Shown here one piece after another: positions 2,330 to 23,977 of a DNA stretch of 39,096 bases. The DNA comes from Escherichia phage T7: sequence record AY264777.1. One strand, given 5' to 3'. The notes beneath the pieces were generated by a model. It did no database searches, was not told where the DNA came from, and saw only the letters and a list, made by a program, of their open reading frames with translations. The position numbers and the translations under genes are program-made. The first letter of the stretch is position 1. Each line of letters opens with the position of its first letter.

Positions 2330-4981
2330 ATGAACACGATTAACATCGCTAAGAACGACTTCTCTGACATCGAACTGGCTGCTATCCCGTTCAACACTCT
2401 GGCTGACCATTACGGTGAGCGTTTAGCTCGCGAACAGTTGGCTCTTGAGCATGAGTCTTACGAGATGGGTGAAGCACGCTTTCGCAAGATGTTTGAGCGT
2501 CAACTTAAAGCTGGTGAGGTTGCGGATAACGCTGCCGCCAAGCCTCTCATCACTACCCTACTCCCTAAGATGATTGCACGCATCAACGACTGGTTTGAGG
2601 AAGTGAAAGCTAAGCGCGGCAAGCGCCCGACAGCTTTCCAGTTCCTGCAAGAAATCAAGCCGGAAGCCGTAGCGTACATCACCATTAAGACCACTCTGGC
2701 TTGCCTAACCAGTGCTGACAATACAACCGTTCAGGCTGCAGCAAGCGCAATCGGTCGGGCCATTGAGGACGAGGCTCGTTTCGGTCGTATCCGTGACCTT
2801 GAAGCTAAGCACTTCAAGAAAAACGTTGAGGAACAACTCAACAAGCGCGTAGGGCACGTCTACAAGAAAGCATTTATGCAAGTTGTCGAGGCTGACATGC
2901 TCTCTAAGGGTCTACTCGGTGGCGAGGCGTGGTCTTCGTGGCATAAGGAAGACTCTATTCATGTAGGAGTACGCTGCATCGAGATGCTCATTGAGTCAAC
3001 CGGAATGGTTAGCTTACATCGCCAAAATGCTGGCGTAGTAGGTCAAGACTCTGAGACTATCGAACTCGCACCTGAATACGCTGAGGCTATCGCAACCCGT
3101 GCAGGTGCGCTGGCTGGCATCTCTCCGATGTTCCAACCTTGCGTAGTTCTTCCTAAGCCGTGGACTGGCATTACTGGTGGTGGCTATTGGGCTAACGGTC
3201 GTCGTCCTCTGGCGCTGGTGCGTACTCACAGTAAGAAAGCACTGATGCGCTACGAAGACGTTTACATGCCTGAGGTGTACAAAGCGATTAACATTGCGCA
3301 AAACACCGCATGGAAAATCAACAAGAAAGTCCTAGCGGTCGCCAACGTAATCACCAAGTGGAAGCATTGTCCGGTCGAGAACATCCCTGCGATTGAGCGT
3401 GAAGAACTCCCGATGAAACCGGAAAACATCGACATGAATCCTGAGGCTCTCATCGCGTGGAAACGTGCTGCCGCTGCTGTGTACCGCAAGGACAAGGCTC
3501 GCAAGTCTCGCCGTATCAGCCTTGAGTTCATGCTTGAGCAAGCCAATAAGTTTGCTAATCATAAGGCCATTTGGTTCCCTTACAACATGGACTGGCGCGG
3601 TCGTGTTTACGCTGTGTCAATGTTCAACCCGCAAGGTAACGATATGACCAAAGGACTGCTTACGCTGGCAAAAGGTAAACCAATCGGTAAGGAAGGTTAC
3701 TACTGGCTGAAAATCCACGGTGCAAACTGTGCGGGTGTCGATAAGGTTCCGTTCCCTGAGCGCATCAAGTTCATTGAGGAAAACCACGAGAACATCATAG
3801 CTTGCGCTAAGTCTCCACTGGAGAACACTTGGTGGGCTGAGCAAGATTCTCCGTTCTGCTTCCTTGCGTTCTGCTTTGAGTACGCTGGGGTACAGCACCA
3901 CGGCCTGAGCTATAACTGCTCCCTTCCGCTGGCGTTTGACGGGTCTTGCTCTGGCATCCAGCACTCCTCCGCGATGCTCCGAGATGAGGTAGGTGGTCGC
4001 GCGGTTAACTTGCTTCCTAGTGAAACCGTTCACGACATCTACGGGATTGTTGCTAAGAAAGTCAACGAGATTCTACAAGCAGATGCAATCAATGGGACCG
4101 ATAACGAAGTAGTTACCGTGACCGATGAGAACACTGGTGAAATCTCTGAGAAAGTCAAGCTGGGCACTAAGGCACTGGCTGGTCAATGGCTGGCTTACAG
4201 TGTTACTCGCAGTGTGACTAAGCGTTCAGTCATGACGCTGGCTTACGGGTCCAAAGAGTTCGGCTTCCGTCAACAAGTGCTGGAAGATACCATTCAGCCA
4301 GCTATTGATTCCGGCAAGGGTCTGATGTTCACTCAGCCGAATCAGGCTGCTGGATACATGGCTAAGCTGATTTGGGAATCTGTGAGCGTGACGGTGGTAG
4401 CTGCGGTTGAAGCAATGAACTGGCTTAAGTCTGCTGCTAAGCTGCTGGCTGCTGAGGTCAAAGATAAGAAGACTGGAGAGATTCTTCGCAAGCGTTGCGC
4501 TGTGCATTGGGTAACTCCTGATGGTTTTCCTGTGTGGCAGGAATACAAGAAGCCTATTCAGACGCGCTTGAACCTGATGTTCCTCGGTCAGTTCCGCTTA
4601 CAGCCTACCATTAACACCAACAAAGATAGCGAGATTGATGCACACAAACAGGAGTCTGGTATCGCTCCTAACTTTGTACACAGCCAAGACGGTAGCCATC
4701 TTCGTAAGACTGTAGTGTGGGCACACGAGAAGTACGGAATCGAATCTTTTGCACTGATTCACGACTCCTTCGGTACCATTCCGGCTGACGCTGCGAACTT
4801 GTTCAAAGCAGTGCGCGAAACTATGGTTGACACATATGAGTCTTGTGATGTACTGGCTGATTTCTACGACCAGTTCGCTGACCAGTTGCACGAGTCTCAA
4901 TTGGACAAAATGCCAGCACTTCCGGCTAAAGGTAACTTGAACCTCCGTGACATCTTAGAGTCGGACTTCGCGTTCGCGTAA
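2330..4981 (+). CDS. 1: Gene 1, T7 RNA polymerase (883 aa)
   Basis: ORF 2330..4981; full-length single-subunit RNAP; specificity-loop region as recalled for wild type. Confidence 0.98.
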   Translation: MNTINIAKNDFSDIELAAIPFNTLADHYGERLAREQLALEHESYEMGEARFRKMFERQLKAGEVADNAAAKPLITTLLPKMIARINDWFEEVKAKRGKRPTAFQFLQEIKPEAVAYITIKTTLACLTSADNTTVQAAASAIGRAIEDEARFGRIRDLEAKHFKKNVEEQLNKRVGHVYKKAFMQVVEADMLSKGLLGGEAWSSWHKEDSIHVGVRCIEMLIESTGMVSLHRQNAGVVGQDSETIELAPEYAEAIATRAGALAGISPMFQPCVVLPKPWTGITGGGYWANGRRPLALVRTHSKKALMRYEDVYMPEVYKAINIAQNTAWKINKKVLAVANVITKWKHCPVENIPAIEREELPMKPENIDMNPEALIAWKRAAAAVYRKDKARKSRRISLEFMLEQANKFANHKAIWFPYNMDWRGRVYAVSMFNPQGNDMTKGLLTLAKGKPIGKEGYYWLKIHGANCAGVDKVPFPERIKFIEENHENIIACAKSPLENTWWAEQDSPFCFLAFCFEYAGVQHHGLSYNCSLPLAFDGSCSGIQHSSAMLRDEVGGRAVNLLPSETVHDIYGIVAKKVNEILQADAINGTDNEVVTVTDENTGEISEKVKLGTKALAGQWLAYSVTRSVTKRSVMTLAYGSKEFGFRQQVLEDTIQPAIDSGKGLMFTQPNQAAGYMAKLIWESVSVTVVAAVEAMNWLKSAAKLLAAEVKDKKTGEILRKRCAVHWVTPDGFPVWQEYKKPIQTRLNLMFLGQFRLQPTINTNKDSEIDAHKQESGIAPNFVHSQDGSHLRKTVVWAHEKYGIESFALIHDSFGTIPADAANLFKAVRETMVDTYESCDVLADFYDQFADQLHESQLDKMPALPAKGNLNLRDILESDFAFA

Positions 4982-8248: not shown

Positions 8249-8251
<3 letters not shown>

Positions 8252-8271
8252 TACGACTCACTATTAGAGAA
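8249..8271 (+). promoter_or_regulatory. T7 promoter phi2.5 (A-initiating class II promoter)
   Basis: taatacgactcactattagagaa. Confidence 0.8.
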
Positions 8272-10321: not shown

Positions 10322-10344
10322 TAATTGAACTCACTAAAAGGAAA
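10322..10344 (+). promoter_or_regulatory. T7 promoter phi3.8 (variant initially transcribed sequence)
   Basis: taattgaactcactaaaaggaaa. Confidence 0.75.
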
Positions 10345-10383: not shown

Positions 10384-12424
<2,041 letters not shown>

Positions 12425-17667: not shown

Positions 17668-17730
17668 AAACTCAAGGTCCCTAAATTAATACGACTCACT
17701 ATAGGGAGATAGGGGCCTTTACGATTATTA
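17668..17730 (+). promoter_or_regulatory. RNase III site R6.5 flanking promoter phi6.5
   Basis: aactcaaggtccc ... aggggcctttacgatta bracketing the promoter. Confidence 0.5.
17687..17709 (+). promoter_or_regulatory. T7 class III promoter phi6.5 (exact consensus)
   Basis: taatacgactcactatagggaga. Confidence 0.9.
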
Positions 17731-19399: not shown

Positions 19400-21009
19400 T
19401 GGCTGAGAAACGAACAGGACTTGCGGAGGATGGCGCAAAGTCTGTCTATGAGCGTTTAAAGAACGACCGTGCTCCCTATGAGACACGCGCTCAGAATTGC
19501 GCTCAATATACCATCCCATCATTGTTCCCTAAGGACTCCGATAACGCCTCTACAGATTATCAAACTCCGTGGCAAGCCGTGGGCGCTCGTGGTCTGAACA
19601 ATCTAGCCTCTAAGCTCATGCTGGCTCTATTCCCTATGCAGACTTGGATGCGACTTACTATATCTGAATATGAAGCAAAGCAGTTACTGAGCGACCCCGA
19701 TGGACTCGCTAAGGTCGATGAGGGCCTCTCGATGGTAGAGCGTATCATCATGAACTACATTGAGTCTAACAGTTACCGCGTGACTCTCTTTGAGGCTCTC
19801 AAACAGTTAGTCGTAGCTGGTAACGTCCTGCTGTACCTACCGGAACCGGAAGGGTCAAACTATAATCCCATGAAGCTGTACCGATTGTCTTCTTATGTGG
19901 TCCAACGAGACGCATTCGGCAACGTTCTGCAAATGGTGACTCGTGACCAGATAGCTTTTGGTGCTCTCCCTGAGGACATCCGTAAGGCTGTAGAAGGTCA
20001 AGGTGGTGAGAAGAAAGCTGATGAGACAATCGACGTGTACACTCACATCTATCTGGATGAGGACTCAGGTGAATACCTCCGATACGAAGAGGTCGAGGAT
20101 ATGGAAGTCCAAGGCTCCGATGGGACTTATCCTAAAGAGGCTTGCCCATACATCCCGATTCGGATGGTCAGACTAGATGGTGAATCCTACGGTCGTTCGT
20201 ACATTGAGGAATACTTAGGTGACTTACGGTCCCTTGAAAATCTCCAAGAGGCTATCGTCAAGATGTCCATGATTAGCTCTAAGGTTATCGGCTTAGTGAA
20301 TCCTGCTGGTATCACCCAGCCACGCCGACTGACCAAAGCTCAGACTGGTGACTTCGTTACTGGTCGTCCAGAAGACATCTCGTTCCTCCAACTGGAGAAG
20401 CAAGCAGACTTTACTGTAGCTAAAGCCGTAAGTGACGCTATCGAGGCTCGCCTTTCGTTTGCCTTTATGTTGAACTCTGCGGTTCAGCGTACAGGTGAAC
20501 GTGTGACCGCCGAAGAGATTCGGTATGTAGCTTCTGAACTTGAAGATACTTTAGGTGGTGTCTACTCTATCCTTTCTCAAGAATTACAATTGCCTCTGGT
20601 ACGAGTGCTCTTGAAGCAACTACAAGCCACGCAACAGATTCCTGAGTTACCTAAGGAAGCCGTAGAGCCAACCATTAGTACAGGTCTGGAAGCAATTGGT
20701 CGAGGACAAGACCTTGATAAGCTGGAGCGGTGTGTCACTGCGTGGGCTGCACTGGCACCTATGCGAAACGACCCTGATATTAACCTTGCGATGATTAAGT
20801 TACGTATTGCCAACGCTATCGGTATTGACACTTCTGGTATTCTACTCACCGAAGAACAGAAGCAACAGAAGATGGCCCAACAGTCTATGCAAATGGGTAT
20901 GGATAATGGTGCTGCTGCGCTGGCTCAAGGTATGGCTGCACAAGCTACAGCTTCACCTGAGGCTATGGCTGCTGCCGCTGATTCCGTAGGTTTACAGCCG
21001 GGAATTTAA
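19399..21009 (+). CDS. 8: Gene 8, head-tail connector (portal) (536 aa)
   Basis: Internal ATG 19399 of ORF 19384..21009. Confidence 0.95.
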   Translation: MAEKRTGLAEDGAKSVYERLKNDRAPYETRAQNCAQYTIPSLFPKDSDNASTDYQTPWQAVGARGLNNLASKLMLALFPMQTWMRLTISEYEAKQLLSDPDGLAKVDEGLSMVERIIMNYIESNSYRVTLFEALKQLVVAGNVLLYLPEPEGSNYNPMKLYRLSSYVVQRDAFGNVLQMVTRDQIAFGALPEDIRKAVEGQGGEKKADETIDVYTHIYLDEDSGEYLRYEEVEDMEVQGSDGTYPKEACPYIPIRMVRLDGESYGRSYIEEYLGDLRSLENLQEAIVKMSMISSKVIGLVNPAGITQPRRLTKAQTGDFVTGRPEDISFLQLEKQADFTVAKAVSDAIEARLSFAFMLNSAVQRTGERVTAEEIRYVASELEDTLGGVYSILSQELQLPLVRVLLKQLQATQQIPELPKEAVEPTISTGLEAIGRGQDLDKLERCVTAWAALAPMRNDPDINLAMIKLRIANAIGIDTSGILLTEEQKQQKMAQQSMQMGMDNGAAALAQGMAAQATASPEAMAAAADSVGLQPGI

Positions 21010-21029
21010 TACGACTCACTATAGAGAGA
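21007..21029 (+). promoter_or_regulatory. T7 class III promoter phi9 (variant at +2)
   Basis: taatacgactcactatagagaga. Confidence 0.85.
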
Positions 21030-21108
21030 CCTCATCTTTGAAATGAGCGATGACAAGAGGTTGGAGTCCTCGGTCTTCCTGTAGTTCAACTTTAAGGAGA
21101 CAATAATA

Positions 21109-22032
21109 ATGGCTGAATCTAATGCAGACGTATATGCATCTTTTGGCGTGAACTCCGCTGTGATGTCTGGTGGTTCCGTTGAGGAACATGAGCAGAACAT
21201 GCTGGCTCTTGATGTTGCTGCCCGTGATGGCGATGATGCAATCGAGTTAGCGTCAGACGAAGTGGAAACAGAACGTGACCTGTATGACAACTCTGACCCA
21301 TTCGGTCAAGAGGATGACGAAGGCCGCATTCAGGTTCGTATCGGTGATGGCTTTGAGCCGACCGATGTGGACACTGGAGAAGAAGGCGTTGAGGGCACCG
21401 AAGGTTCCGAAGAGTTTACCTCACTGGGCGAGACTCCAGAAGAACTGGTAGCTGCCTCTGAGCAACTTGGTGAGCACGAAGAGGGCTTCCAAGAGATGAT
21501 TAACATTGCTGCTGAGCGTGGCATGAGTGTCGAGACCATTGAGGCTATCCAGCGTGAGTACGAGGAGAACGAAGAGTTGTCCGCCGAGTCCTACGCTAAG
21601 CTGGCTGAAATTGGCTACACGAAGGCTTTCATTGACTCGTATATCCGTGGTCAAGAAGCTTTGGTGGAGCAGTACGTAAACAGTGTCATTGAGTACGCTG
21701 GTGGTCGTGAACGTTTTGATGCACTGTATAACCACCTTGAGACGCACAACCCTGAGGCTGCACAGTCGCTGGATAATGCGTTGACCAATCGTGACTTAGC
21801 GACCGTTAAGGCTATCATCAACTTGGCTGGTGAGTCTCGCGCTAAGGCGTTCGGTCGTAAGCCAACTCGTAGTGTGACTAATCGTGCTATTCCGGCTAAA
21901 CCTCAGGCTACCAAGCATGAAGGCTTTGCGGACCGTAGCGAGATGATTAAAGCTATGAGTGACCCTCGGTATCGCACAGATGCCAACTATCGTCGTCAAG
22001 TCGAACAGAAAGTAATCGATTCGAACTTCTGA
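21109..22032 (+). CDS. 9: Gene 9, capsid assembly (scaffolding) protein (307 aa)
   Basis: ORF 21109..22032; highly acidic. Confidence 0.95.
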   Translation: MAESNADVYASFGVNSAVMSGGSVEEHEQNMLALDVAARDGDDAIELASDEVETERDLYDNSDPFGQEDDEGRIQVRIGDGFEPTDVDTGEEGVEGTEGSEEFTSLGETPEELVAASEQLGEHEEGFQEMINIAAERGMSVETIEAIQREYEENEELSAESYAKLAEIGYTKAFIDSYIRGQEALVEQYVNSVIEYAGGRERFDALYNHLETHNPEAAQSLDNALTNRDLATVKAIINLAGESRAKAFGRKPTRSVTNRAIPAKPQATKHEGFADRSEMIKAMSDPRYRTDANYRRQVEQKVIDSNF

Positions 22033-22045
22033 TAGACTTCGAAAT

Positions 22046-22068
22046 TAATACGATTCATTATAGGGAGA
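22046..22068 (+). promoter_or_regulatory. T7 class III promoter phi10 (two substitutions, -9 and -5)
   Basis: taatacgattcattatagggaga followed by the gene 10 leader ccacaacggtttccctctagaaataattttgtttaactttaagaaggagatatacat. Confidence 0.9.
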
Positions 22069-22125
22069 CCACAACGGTTTCCCTCTAGAAATAATTTTGT
22101 TTAACTTTAAGAAGGAGATATACAT

Positions 22126-23163
22126 ATGGCTAGCATGACTGGTGGACAGCAAATGGGTACTAACCAAGGTAAAGGTGTAGTTGCTGCTGGAGATAAACTG
22201 GCGTTGTTCTTGAAGGTATTTGGCGGTGAAGTCCTGACTGCGTTCGCTCGTACCTCCGTGACCACTTCTCGCCACATGGTACGTTCCATCTCCAGCGGTA
22301 AATCCGCTCAGTTCCCTGTTCTGGGTCGCACTCAGGCAGCGTATCTGGCTCCGGGCGAGAACCTCGACGATAAACGTAAGGACATCAAACACACCGAGAA
22401 GGTAATCATCATTGACGGTCTCTTGACGGCTGACGTTCTGATTTATGATATTGAGGACGCGATGAACCACTACGACGTTCGCTCTGAGTATACCTCTCAG
22501 TTGGGTGAATCTCTGGCGATGGCTGCGGATGGTGCGGTTCTGGCTGAGATTGCCGATCTGTGTAACGTGGAAAGCAAATATAATGAGAACATCGAGGGCT
22601 TAGGTACTGCTACCGTAATTGAGACCACTCAAAACAAGGCCGCACTTACCGACCAAATTGCGCTGGGTAAGGAGATTATTGCGGCTCTGACTAAGGCTCG
22701 TGCGGTTCTGACCAAGAACTATGTTCCGGCTGCTGACCGTGTGTTCTACTGTGACCCAGATAGCTACTCTGCGATTCTGGCAGCACTGATGCCGAACGCA
22801 GCAAACTACGCTGCTCTGATTGACCCTGAGAAGGGTTCTATTCGCAACGTTATGGGCTTTGAGGTTGTAGAAGTTCCGCACCTCACCGCTGGTGGTGCTG
22901 GTACCGCTCGTGAGGGCACTACTGGTCAGAAGCACGTCTTCCCTGCCAATAAAGGTGAGGGTAATGTCAAGGTTGCTAAGGACAACGTTATCGGTCTGTT
23001 CATGCACCGCTCTGCGGTAGGTACTGTTAAGCTGCGTGACTTGGCTCTGGAGCGCGCTCGCCGTGCTAACTTCCAAGCGGACCAGATTATCGCTAAGTAC
23101 GCAATGGGCCACGGTGGTCTTCGCCCAGAAGCTGCTGGTGCAGTGGTTTTCAAAGTGGAGTAA
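22126..23163 (+). CDS. 10: Gene 10A, major capsid protein (345 aa)
   Basis: ORF 22126..23163; MASMTGGQQMG...VVFKVE. Confidence 0.98.
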   Translation: MASMTGGQQMGTNQGKGVVAAGDKLALFLKVFGGEVLTAFARTSVTTSRHMVRSISSGKSAQFPVLGRTQAAYLAPGENLDDKRKDIKHTEKVIIIDGLLTADVLIYDIEDAMNHYDVRSEYTSQLGESLAMAADGAVLAEIADLCNVESKYNENIEGLGTATVIETTQNKAALTDQIALGKEIIAALTKARAVLTKNYVPAADRVFYCDPDSYSAILAALMPNAANYAALIDPEKGSIRNVMGFEVVEVPHLTAGGAGTAREGTTGQKHVFPANKGEGNVKVAKDNVIGLFMHRSAVGTVKLRDLALERARRANFQADQIIAKYAMGHGGLRPEAAGAVVFKVE

Positions 23164-23321
23164 TGCTGGGGGTGGCCTCAACGGTCGCTGCTAGTCCCGA
23201 AGAGGCGAGTGTTACTTCAACAGAAGAAACCTTAACGCCAGCACAGAAGGCCGCACGCACCCGCGCTGCTAACAAAGCCCGAAAGGAAACTGAGTTGGCT
23301 GCTGCCACCGCTGAGCAATAA
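22126..23321 (+). CDS. 10: Gene 10B, minor capsid protein via -1 ribosomal frameshift near the 3' end of 10A
   Basis: Slippery tract ggttttc near 23147-23153; -1 frame open to taa 23319-23321. Confidence 0.55.
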
Positions 23322-23328
23322 CTAGCAT

Positions 23329-23369
23329 AATCCCTTGGGGCCTCTAAACGGGTCTTGAGGGGTTTTTTG
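23329..23369 (+). terminator. Tphi, T7 RNA polymerase terminator (stem variant)
   Basis: aatcccttggggcctctaaacgggtcttgaggggttttttg; GC-rich hairpin plus U-tract. Confidence 0.9.
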
Positions 23370-23386
23370 CTGAAAGGAGAAACTAT

Positions 23387-23977
23387 ATGCGCTCATACGA
23401 TATGAACGTTGAGACTGCCGCTGAGTTATCAGCTGTGAACGACATTCTGGCGTCTATCGGTGAACCTCCGGTATCAACGCTGGAAGGTGACGCTAACGCA
23501 GATGCAGCGAACGCTCGGCGTATTCTCAACAAGATTAACCGACAGATTCAATCTCGTGGATGGACGTTCAACATTGAGGAAGGCATAACGCTACTACCTG
23601 ATGTTTACTCCAACCTGATTGTATACAGTGACGACTATTTATCCCTAATGTCTACTTCCGGTCAATCCATCTACGTTAACCGAGGTGGCTATGTGTATGA
23701 CCGAACGAGTCAATCAGACCGCTTTGACTCTGGTATTACTGTGAACATTATTCGTCTCCGCGACTACGATGAGATGCCTGAGTGCTTCCGTTACTGGATT
23801 GTCACCAAGGCTTCCCGTCAGTTCAACAACCGATTCTTTGGGGCACCGGAAGTAGAGGGTGTACTCCAAGAAGAGGAAAATGAGGCTAGACGTCTCTGCA
23901 TGGAGTATGAGATGGACTACGGTGGGTACAATATGCTGGATGGAGATGCGTTCACTTCTGGTCTACTGACTCGCTAA
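23387..23977 (+). CDS. 11: Gene 11, tail tubular protein A (196 aa)
   Basis: ORF track 23387..23977. Confidence 0.95.

Follow-up and report, generated by a model that had tools for sequence, protein, structure and literature searches.

Two mutagen-type transitions in the phi10 promoter of a bacteriophage T7 isolate, an ordinary passenger lesion in a mutagenized genome

This work describes a doubly substituted phi10 promoter in a bacteriophage T7 genome of 39,096 nucleotides (AY264777.1; the whole of this stretch is referred to here as the window). The lesion is real, yet it is an ordinary passenger in a mutagenized T7 genome. An earlier reading of the window from its letters alone (the sequence-only reading) had presented the phi10 change as an isolated regulatory event; the two changes are in fact 2 of 306 substitutions, 93% of them G:C>A:T, in a mutagenized lineage already in GenBank. 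Both base changes together probably inactivate the promoter, and we hold it highly probable that phi10 is a near-null passenger of mutagenesis with gene 10 served by upstream promoters. The strain, the effects of the single substitutions, and the fact that phi10 can be dispensed with had been recorded before; the case serves as a reminder that, in a mutagenized genome, a striking regulatory lesion needs to be weighed against the genome-wide mutation load.

The variant phi10 promoter

The promoter and its neighbors are listed below. phi10 was placed by direct reading, a consensus scan, a five-genome MAFFT alignment, and synteny with NC_001604; the coordinates of gene 9 were transferred from AY264774, and Tphi is annotated in NC_001604.

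21109 to 22032, + strand: gene 9 (scaffold), with S82F, P105S, and R270H; stop codon TGA at 22030 to 22032
22046 to 22068, + strand: phi10, class III promoter of gene 10, variant TAATACGATTCATTATAGGGAGA
22069 to 22125, + strand: gene 10 leader and ribosome-binding site, as in the wild type (no differences from wild-type position 22900 to 23251)
22126 to 23163, + strand: gene 10A (major capsid protein), frame intact, with T95I, G144D, V178I, and A194V
23329 to 23370, + strand: Tphi terminator hairpin and T-run, with C>T at 23331

The scan employed the 23-bp class III consensus with a tolerance of ≤3 mismatches and returned 10 sites, all on the + strand, against an expectation of 0 in shuffled sequence. 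Exact copies of the consensus stand at 17687 (phi6.5), 26416 (phi13), 33708 (phi17), and 38371 (phiOR), while phi10 departs from it at two positions, C>T at 22054 (-9) and C>T at 22058 (-5), where numbering runs from the T at -17 and +1 is the G at 22063. In both respects, the two substitutions with their numbering and the four intact consensus copies, the sequence-only reading was borne out. The gene 9 stop precedes the promoter, and the gene 10A ATG follows it at a distance of approximately 63 bp; in the alignment the promoter stands opposite wild-type positions 22888 to 22910, syntenic with the start annotated at 22904 of NC_001604. Wild-type T7 (AY264774) has C at both -9 and -5 in the alignment, as had been presumed. 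Across the natural T7 promoters, -9 is C in 17 of 17, and -5 is C in 16 and G in one (phi1.3). The variant thus has T rather than the C of a functional T7 promoter at -9, and T rather than C or G at -5.

A 56-bp context of the variant promoter found its sole match among 50,697 phage records in AY264778, and the exact variant 23-mer occurs 0 times in the 2.9 million contigs of IMG/VR. By these comparisons, the variant is a private allele confined to the mutagenized T7 lineage, and the same two results rule out a natural allele.

A mutagenized lineage and its mutation spectrum

The genomes aligned with the window were AY264774 (T7, 39,938 bp), AY264775 (isolate K), AY264776 (K115), and AY264778 (isolate P82). 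Bull and colleagues reportedly mutagenized and bottlenecked T7 and afterwards passaged it in large populations for recovery of fitness, and we take AY264774 to AY264778 to be the genomes of that mutagenesis and mutation-accumulation study, the 2003 work of Bull, Badgett, Rokyta, and Molineux. P82 is presumably a descendant from a passaged recovery line, judging from the isolate name. Isolate names and mutation spectrum suggest that P82 most likely derives from the window, which would then be isolate P. A later Bull review cites Bull et al. 2003 for extreme bottlenecks fixing random mutations.

The relation to P82 is close. Identity to AY264778 is 100% over positions 20500 to 23500 and 99.9% over positions 1 to 25000, compared with 99.2 to 99.3% for ordinary T7 records. 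P82 shares the 819-bp gene 0.7 deletion and all six promoter substitutions, its spectrum is likewise dominated by G:C>A:T, and both phi10 changes are kept. A total of 26 substitutions, together with three small internal deletions in P82, separate it from the window, and the ends of the two records extend differently. In the alignment, no difference between P82 and the window falls between wild-type positions 19572 and 26235, so that the vicinity of phi9, phi10, and gene 10 has acquired no cis change in the recovery line; cis compensation there is ruled out.

Relative to AY264774, the 306 substitutions in the window comprise 159 C>T, 127 G>A, and 20 others; the comparison also shows the gene 0.7 deletion of 819 bp, and the leftmost 23 bases are unsequenced in the window. 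G:C>A:T transitions therefore make up 286 of 306 (93.5%), and 239 of the 286 are at a G with a 5' purine (per-site transition rates of 2.1% at AG, 3.0% at GG, 0.8% at CG, and 0.3% at TG). Transitions of this type and context are what nitrosoguanidine and similar alkylating mutagens are expected to leave. Both hallmarks of mutation accumulation under a mutagen of this type, the G:C>A:T excess and the 5'-RG preference, are found in the lineage, and both phi10 changes are bottom-strand G>A in a 5'-AG context that matches the signature.

How surprising the double hit is was gauged with a context-aware model, which gave a probability of 0.0105 for at least 2 hits in phi10 itself and of 0.145 for at least 2 hits in any of the 17 promoters. 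Over the whole window, mutations are clustered beyond the same model, with 17 neighboring pairs within 5 bp where 9.7 would be expected (P = 0.025), which is consistent with closely linked multiple mutagen hits. Once the mutation load of the whole genome is known, the double hit in phi10 is unremarkable.

Expected activity of the variant promoter

The effect of each substitution can be gauged from the work of Komura et al. 2018 (PMC5937735), in which 7,847 barcoded variants were scored in vitro as RNA reads over DNA reads; the templates were linear with one barcode per variant, and in infected cells the abundant polymerase of the late phase could raise the activity. In the S2 file of that study, the wild-type promoter scores 169 ± 19, the -9T single mutant 0.0426 (approximately 0.03% of the wild type), and the -5T single mutant 1.145 (approximately 0.7%). 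Among the matches listed there, which are sorted by activity and do not include the -9T/-5T combination, the top score is 0.045 for variants bearing -9T and 1.14 for those bearing -5T, and -5G, the natural base of phi1.3, gives scores of 24 to 56. Variants with >1% activity keep the -9 base in 99.2% of cases and the -5 base in 92.2%. The Discussion of PMC5937735 has R756 of the polymerase touching the -9 base pair and the specificity loop reading -11 to -7, describes -5 as the boundary at which melting begins, and cites earlier work in which substitutions from -9 to -7 left <5% activity. The sequence-only reading had placed -9 in the specificity-loop segment and -5 at the edge of melting, in agreement with this account.

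Because each single change leaves <1% of activity in vitro, the -9T/-5T promoter is most likely a functional null, or nearly so, with wild-type polymerase, a conclusion drawn from the single-mutant values. The sequence-only reading had called the promoter weakened; a reduction in activity is upheld, and the degree implied was probably too mild. T7 promoter mutant collections (Imburgio et al. 2000; Komura et al. 2018, PMC5937735; Chapman and Burgess 1987/1988) include -9 C>T and -5 C>T, both strongly defective. Those collections use plasmid or PCR templates, whereas here the two changes are combined in a phage genome.

Could the promoter nevertheless contribute appreciably in vivo, such that gene 10 does not mainly depend on read-through? 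High polymerase levels late in infection and a genomic template might permit a useful firing rate, and the sole quantitative data are in vitro scores with one barcode per variant. Some tolerance at -5 is evident from phi1.3 (TAATACGACTCAGTATAGGGACA), a natural class II promoter that functions despite a non-C base at -5, and from the -5G scores set against 169 for the wild type. The likeness to phi1.3 is partial, however: phi1.3 has G at -5 and C at -9, the variant has T at both, and in vitro -5G is substantially active and -5T is not. Further evidence against appreciable firing comes from -9, where T left approximately 0.03% of activity in two independent variants with no listed -9T match above 0.045, where C is invariant among the natural promoters, and where the earlier measurements cited in PMC5937735 point the same way; moreover, two combined defects should exceed either one. 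Taken together, a weakened phi10 that still contributes usefully is unlikely.

Supply of gene 10 transcripts

Two upstream promoters, both placed by scan and alignment, bear on the supply of gene 10 in the presence of a probably near-null phi10.

17687 to 17709, + strand: phi6.5, intact class III consensus, an upstream source of read-through
21007 to 21029, + strand: phi9 (TATAGAGAGA), with G>A at +2 (21025)

Of the upstream promoters from which gene 10 could be transcribed, phi9 is the closest. In the S2 file of Komura et al. 2018 (PMC5937735), +2A variants score 72 to 76, approximately 44% of the wild type in vitro for the phi9 change, and +1A scores 68. By analogy with these values, phi9 in the window should retain roughly half of its activity. 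Given an intact phi6.5 and a phi9 of about half strength, read-through would be expected to sustain gene 10 expression, but at a lower level.

Read-through of this kind has a direct precedent. Paff et al. 2018 (PMC6068830) exchanged phi9 and/or phi10 for arbitrary sequence, and their loss was tolerated because the sole T7 terminator follows gene 10A. The phi10 single knockout was viable, with a nonsignificant loss of fitness (P = 0.075); the phi9 and phi10 knockouts affected 10A RNA similarly, and approximately 14% of 10A RNA remained in the double knockout (PMC6068830). Over approximately 160 to 180 generations the promoters were not restored, and gene 1 changed instead, e.g., E222A (PMC6068830). 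The window resembles the phi10 knockout of that study in having a disabled phi10 (here by inference), a phage viable through upstream promoters, and no restoration on passaging. The differences are that 18 to 23 bp were replaced in a near-wild-type genome by Paff et al. (PMC6068830), compared with two point transitions accompanied by 304 other substitutions here, and that phi9 was ablated there and has only the +2 change here. An engineered knockout is itself rejected as the identity of the variant, in that 21 of the 23 phi10 positions are kept and both changes are mutagen-type transitions. As for the suggestion in the sequence-only reading that gene 10 may rely on read-through from phi6.5 and phi9, the route is established for phi10 ablation (PMC6068830), but the phi9 back-up, which that reading did not list among the intact promoters, is itself altered at +2. 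The window would thus be a case in which T7 survives the loss, by point mutation, of its strongest late promoter; deliberate phi10 knockouts had already shown such tolerance.

Downstream of gene 10A, the C>T change at 23331 falls in the Tphi hairpin (approximately 23329 to 23364) and converts the outermost stem pair from G-C to G-U, with the predicted ΔG moving from -28.2 to -25.6 kcal/mol. P82 keeps this change, which on the folding prediction could slightly increase read-through into genes 11 and 12. A separate G>A at 23380 alters the gene 11 Shine-Dalgarno sequence from AAAGGAGGAAC to AAAGGAGAAAC, 7 nt 5' of the ATG, and is likewise kept in P82.

RNA polymerase and the absence of compensation

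The polymerase that would have to read the variant promoter is itself mutated.

2330 to 4981, + strand: gene 1 (T7 RNA polymerase), with V137A, P274L, D351N, D366N, T375I, M490I, F546S, Q568H, and G624S

Gene 1 carries 21 substitutions in 2,652 bp, in line with the genome-wide mutagen density. The specificity loop (residues 739 to 770, and also the wider span of 736 to 775) is wild type, and a comparison of gene 1 with the wild type revealed no compensating change in the loop or at E222. The sequence-only reading was accordingly right that the loop looks wild type, with no obvious compensating change; this does not extend to the whole enzyme, which has nine substitutions outside the promoter-contact elements. 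In the structure, none of the nine is known to fall in the AT-rich recognition loop (residues ~93 to 101) or the intercalating hairpin (residues ~230 to 245). F546S and Q568H stem from base changes that are not of the mutagen type (T>C and G>C), and P82 has the wild-type residue at both positions; D351N of the window is D351Y in P82. These differences suggest reversion or compensation during recovery, or polymorphism of the founding stock.

Nine substitutions in gene 1 invite the reading that a polymerase with relaxed or shifted recognition still uses the variant phi10, the two forming a co-evolved pair, and promoter-knockout lines commonly adapt through changes in gene 1, as with E222A (PMC6068830). 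The unchanged specificity loop and E222, the positions of the nine changes, none of them known to fall in the other contact elements, and a substitution density in gene 1 that matches the rest of the genome all speak against a co-evolved pair. So do the other promoters: all 16 keep C at -9 and the wild-type base at -5, and no covariation is seen. We regard this reading as very improbable. An altered-specificity promoter/polymerase pair of the T3-like or evolved orthogonal type was also considered and rejected, as the loop (the N748, R756, and Q758 region) is unchanged and no promoter has matching changes.

Other promoters and the question of selection

In addition to phi9 and phi10, two promoters are altered in the window lineage, both identified in the alignment.

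8249 to 8271: phi2.5, with G>A at +3 (8268)
10322 to 10344: phi3.8, with G>A at +1 (10339) and +5 (10343)

Altogether, 4 of the 17 promoters have six changes, all of which are kept in P82. The K lineage has promoter hits in phi1.1A, phi1.5, and phi4c. Across both lineages, the binding region (-17 to -5) is altered in phi10 of the window alone. No new T7-type promoter was detected in a position-weight-matrix scan of both strands: the window and P82 each have the 17 known sites only, and a replacement promoter elsewhere was rejected on this basis. No sigma-70-like promoter arising from the phi10 changes was found in the window or the wild type, and that candidate was likewise rejected.

The six promoter hits compare with 2.58 expected under the context model (P = 0.047, a marginal, post hoc result). 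This is slightly above the model, and loss of phi10 might have been selected rather than fixed by drift alone, for instance by rebalancing capsid expression amid damaged morphogenesis genes; phi3.8 and phi10 each have two hits, and both phi10 changes persist in P82. Against selection, the enrichment is marginal and post hoc, and mutation clustering inflates double hits. Engineered loss of phi10 lowers fitness or leaves it equal and does not raise it (PMC6068830), persistence in P82 is explained equally well if no single mutation can restore a working promoter, and the independent K lineage has an intact phi10. Selected loss is, in our estimation, likewise very improbable. Even taken together, continued use of the -9T/-5T promoter through relaxed polymerase recognition and positive selection for phi10 loss are very unlikely; if either were true, the window would offer an unplanned case in T7 of a promoter and a polymerase co-evolving, or of a promoter lost through adaptation. 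Sequencing or assembly error has a negligible probability: nothing specific favors it beyond the records being older Sanger-era genomes with an occasional N, and both substitutions recur in the separately deposited descendant AY264778 and fit the genome-wide mutagen signature and context.

Proposed history of the lesion

The preferred explanation, a passenger lesion of mutagenesis, would run as follows. An experiment in T7 mutagenesis and mutation accumulation would have yielded the window genome, with an alkylating mutagen inducing hundreds of G:C>A:T transitions that then became fixed. Two of these would have struck phi10 4 bp apart, at the template-strand G of -9, read by R756, and at the G of -5, the base pair immediately adjoining the melted region. 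With wild-type T7 RNA polymerase, the resulting promoter would be approximately null, a loss of function in vivo that we infer. Gene 10 would be carried on polycistronic RNAs from phi9 (reduced by +2 G>A), phi6.5, and the class II promoters, and the phage would remain viable because no terminator stands between phi6.5 and Tphi. The predicted outcome is less capsid mRNA at a modest cost in fitness.

The same explanation may account for the lack of reversion. A single reversion would leave phi10 dead, with no one-step return; as either single revertant would still have <1% activity, retention of both changes in P82 is to be expected. For attenuation design, the modest lesson would be that two individually lethal hits per promoter preclude single-step reversion, with which retention in P82 is consistent.

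Other lesions in the genome

The gene 0.7 deletion, 819 bp in frame (wild-type positions 2170 to 2988, junction at 2146/2147), is flanked by imperfect direct repeats, GGC(A/G)CTTGAG; an open reading frame of 86 aa remains at 1999 to 2259. The K lineage has a different deletion, of 821 bp at wild-type position 1759, and that of K115 is larger. Despite unlike deletions in the early region, the window and the K lineage (AY264775) have 24 substitutions in common, which suggests a common mutagenized ancestor or recurrent hot spots. Nonsense mutations are present in the nonessential genes 0.4 (W28*, at 1338) and 4.2 (W59*, at 12323) and correspond to misc_features labeled "similar to gene" in the P82 record; the change at 12323 also produces E534K in gene 4A.
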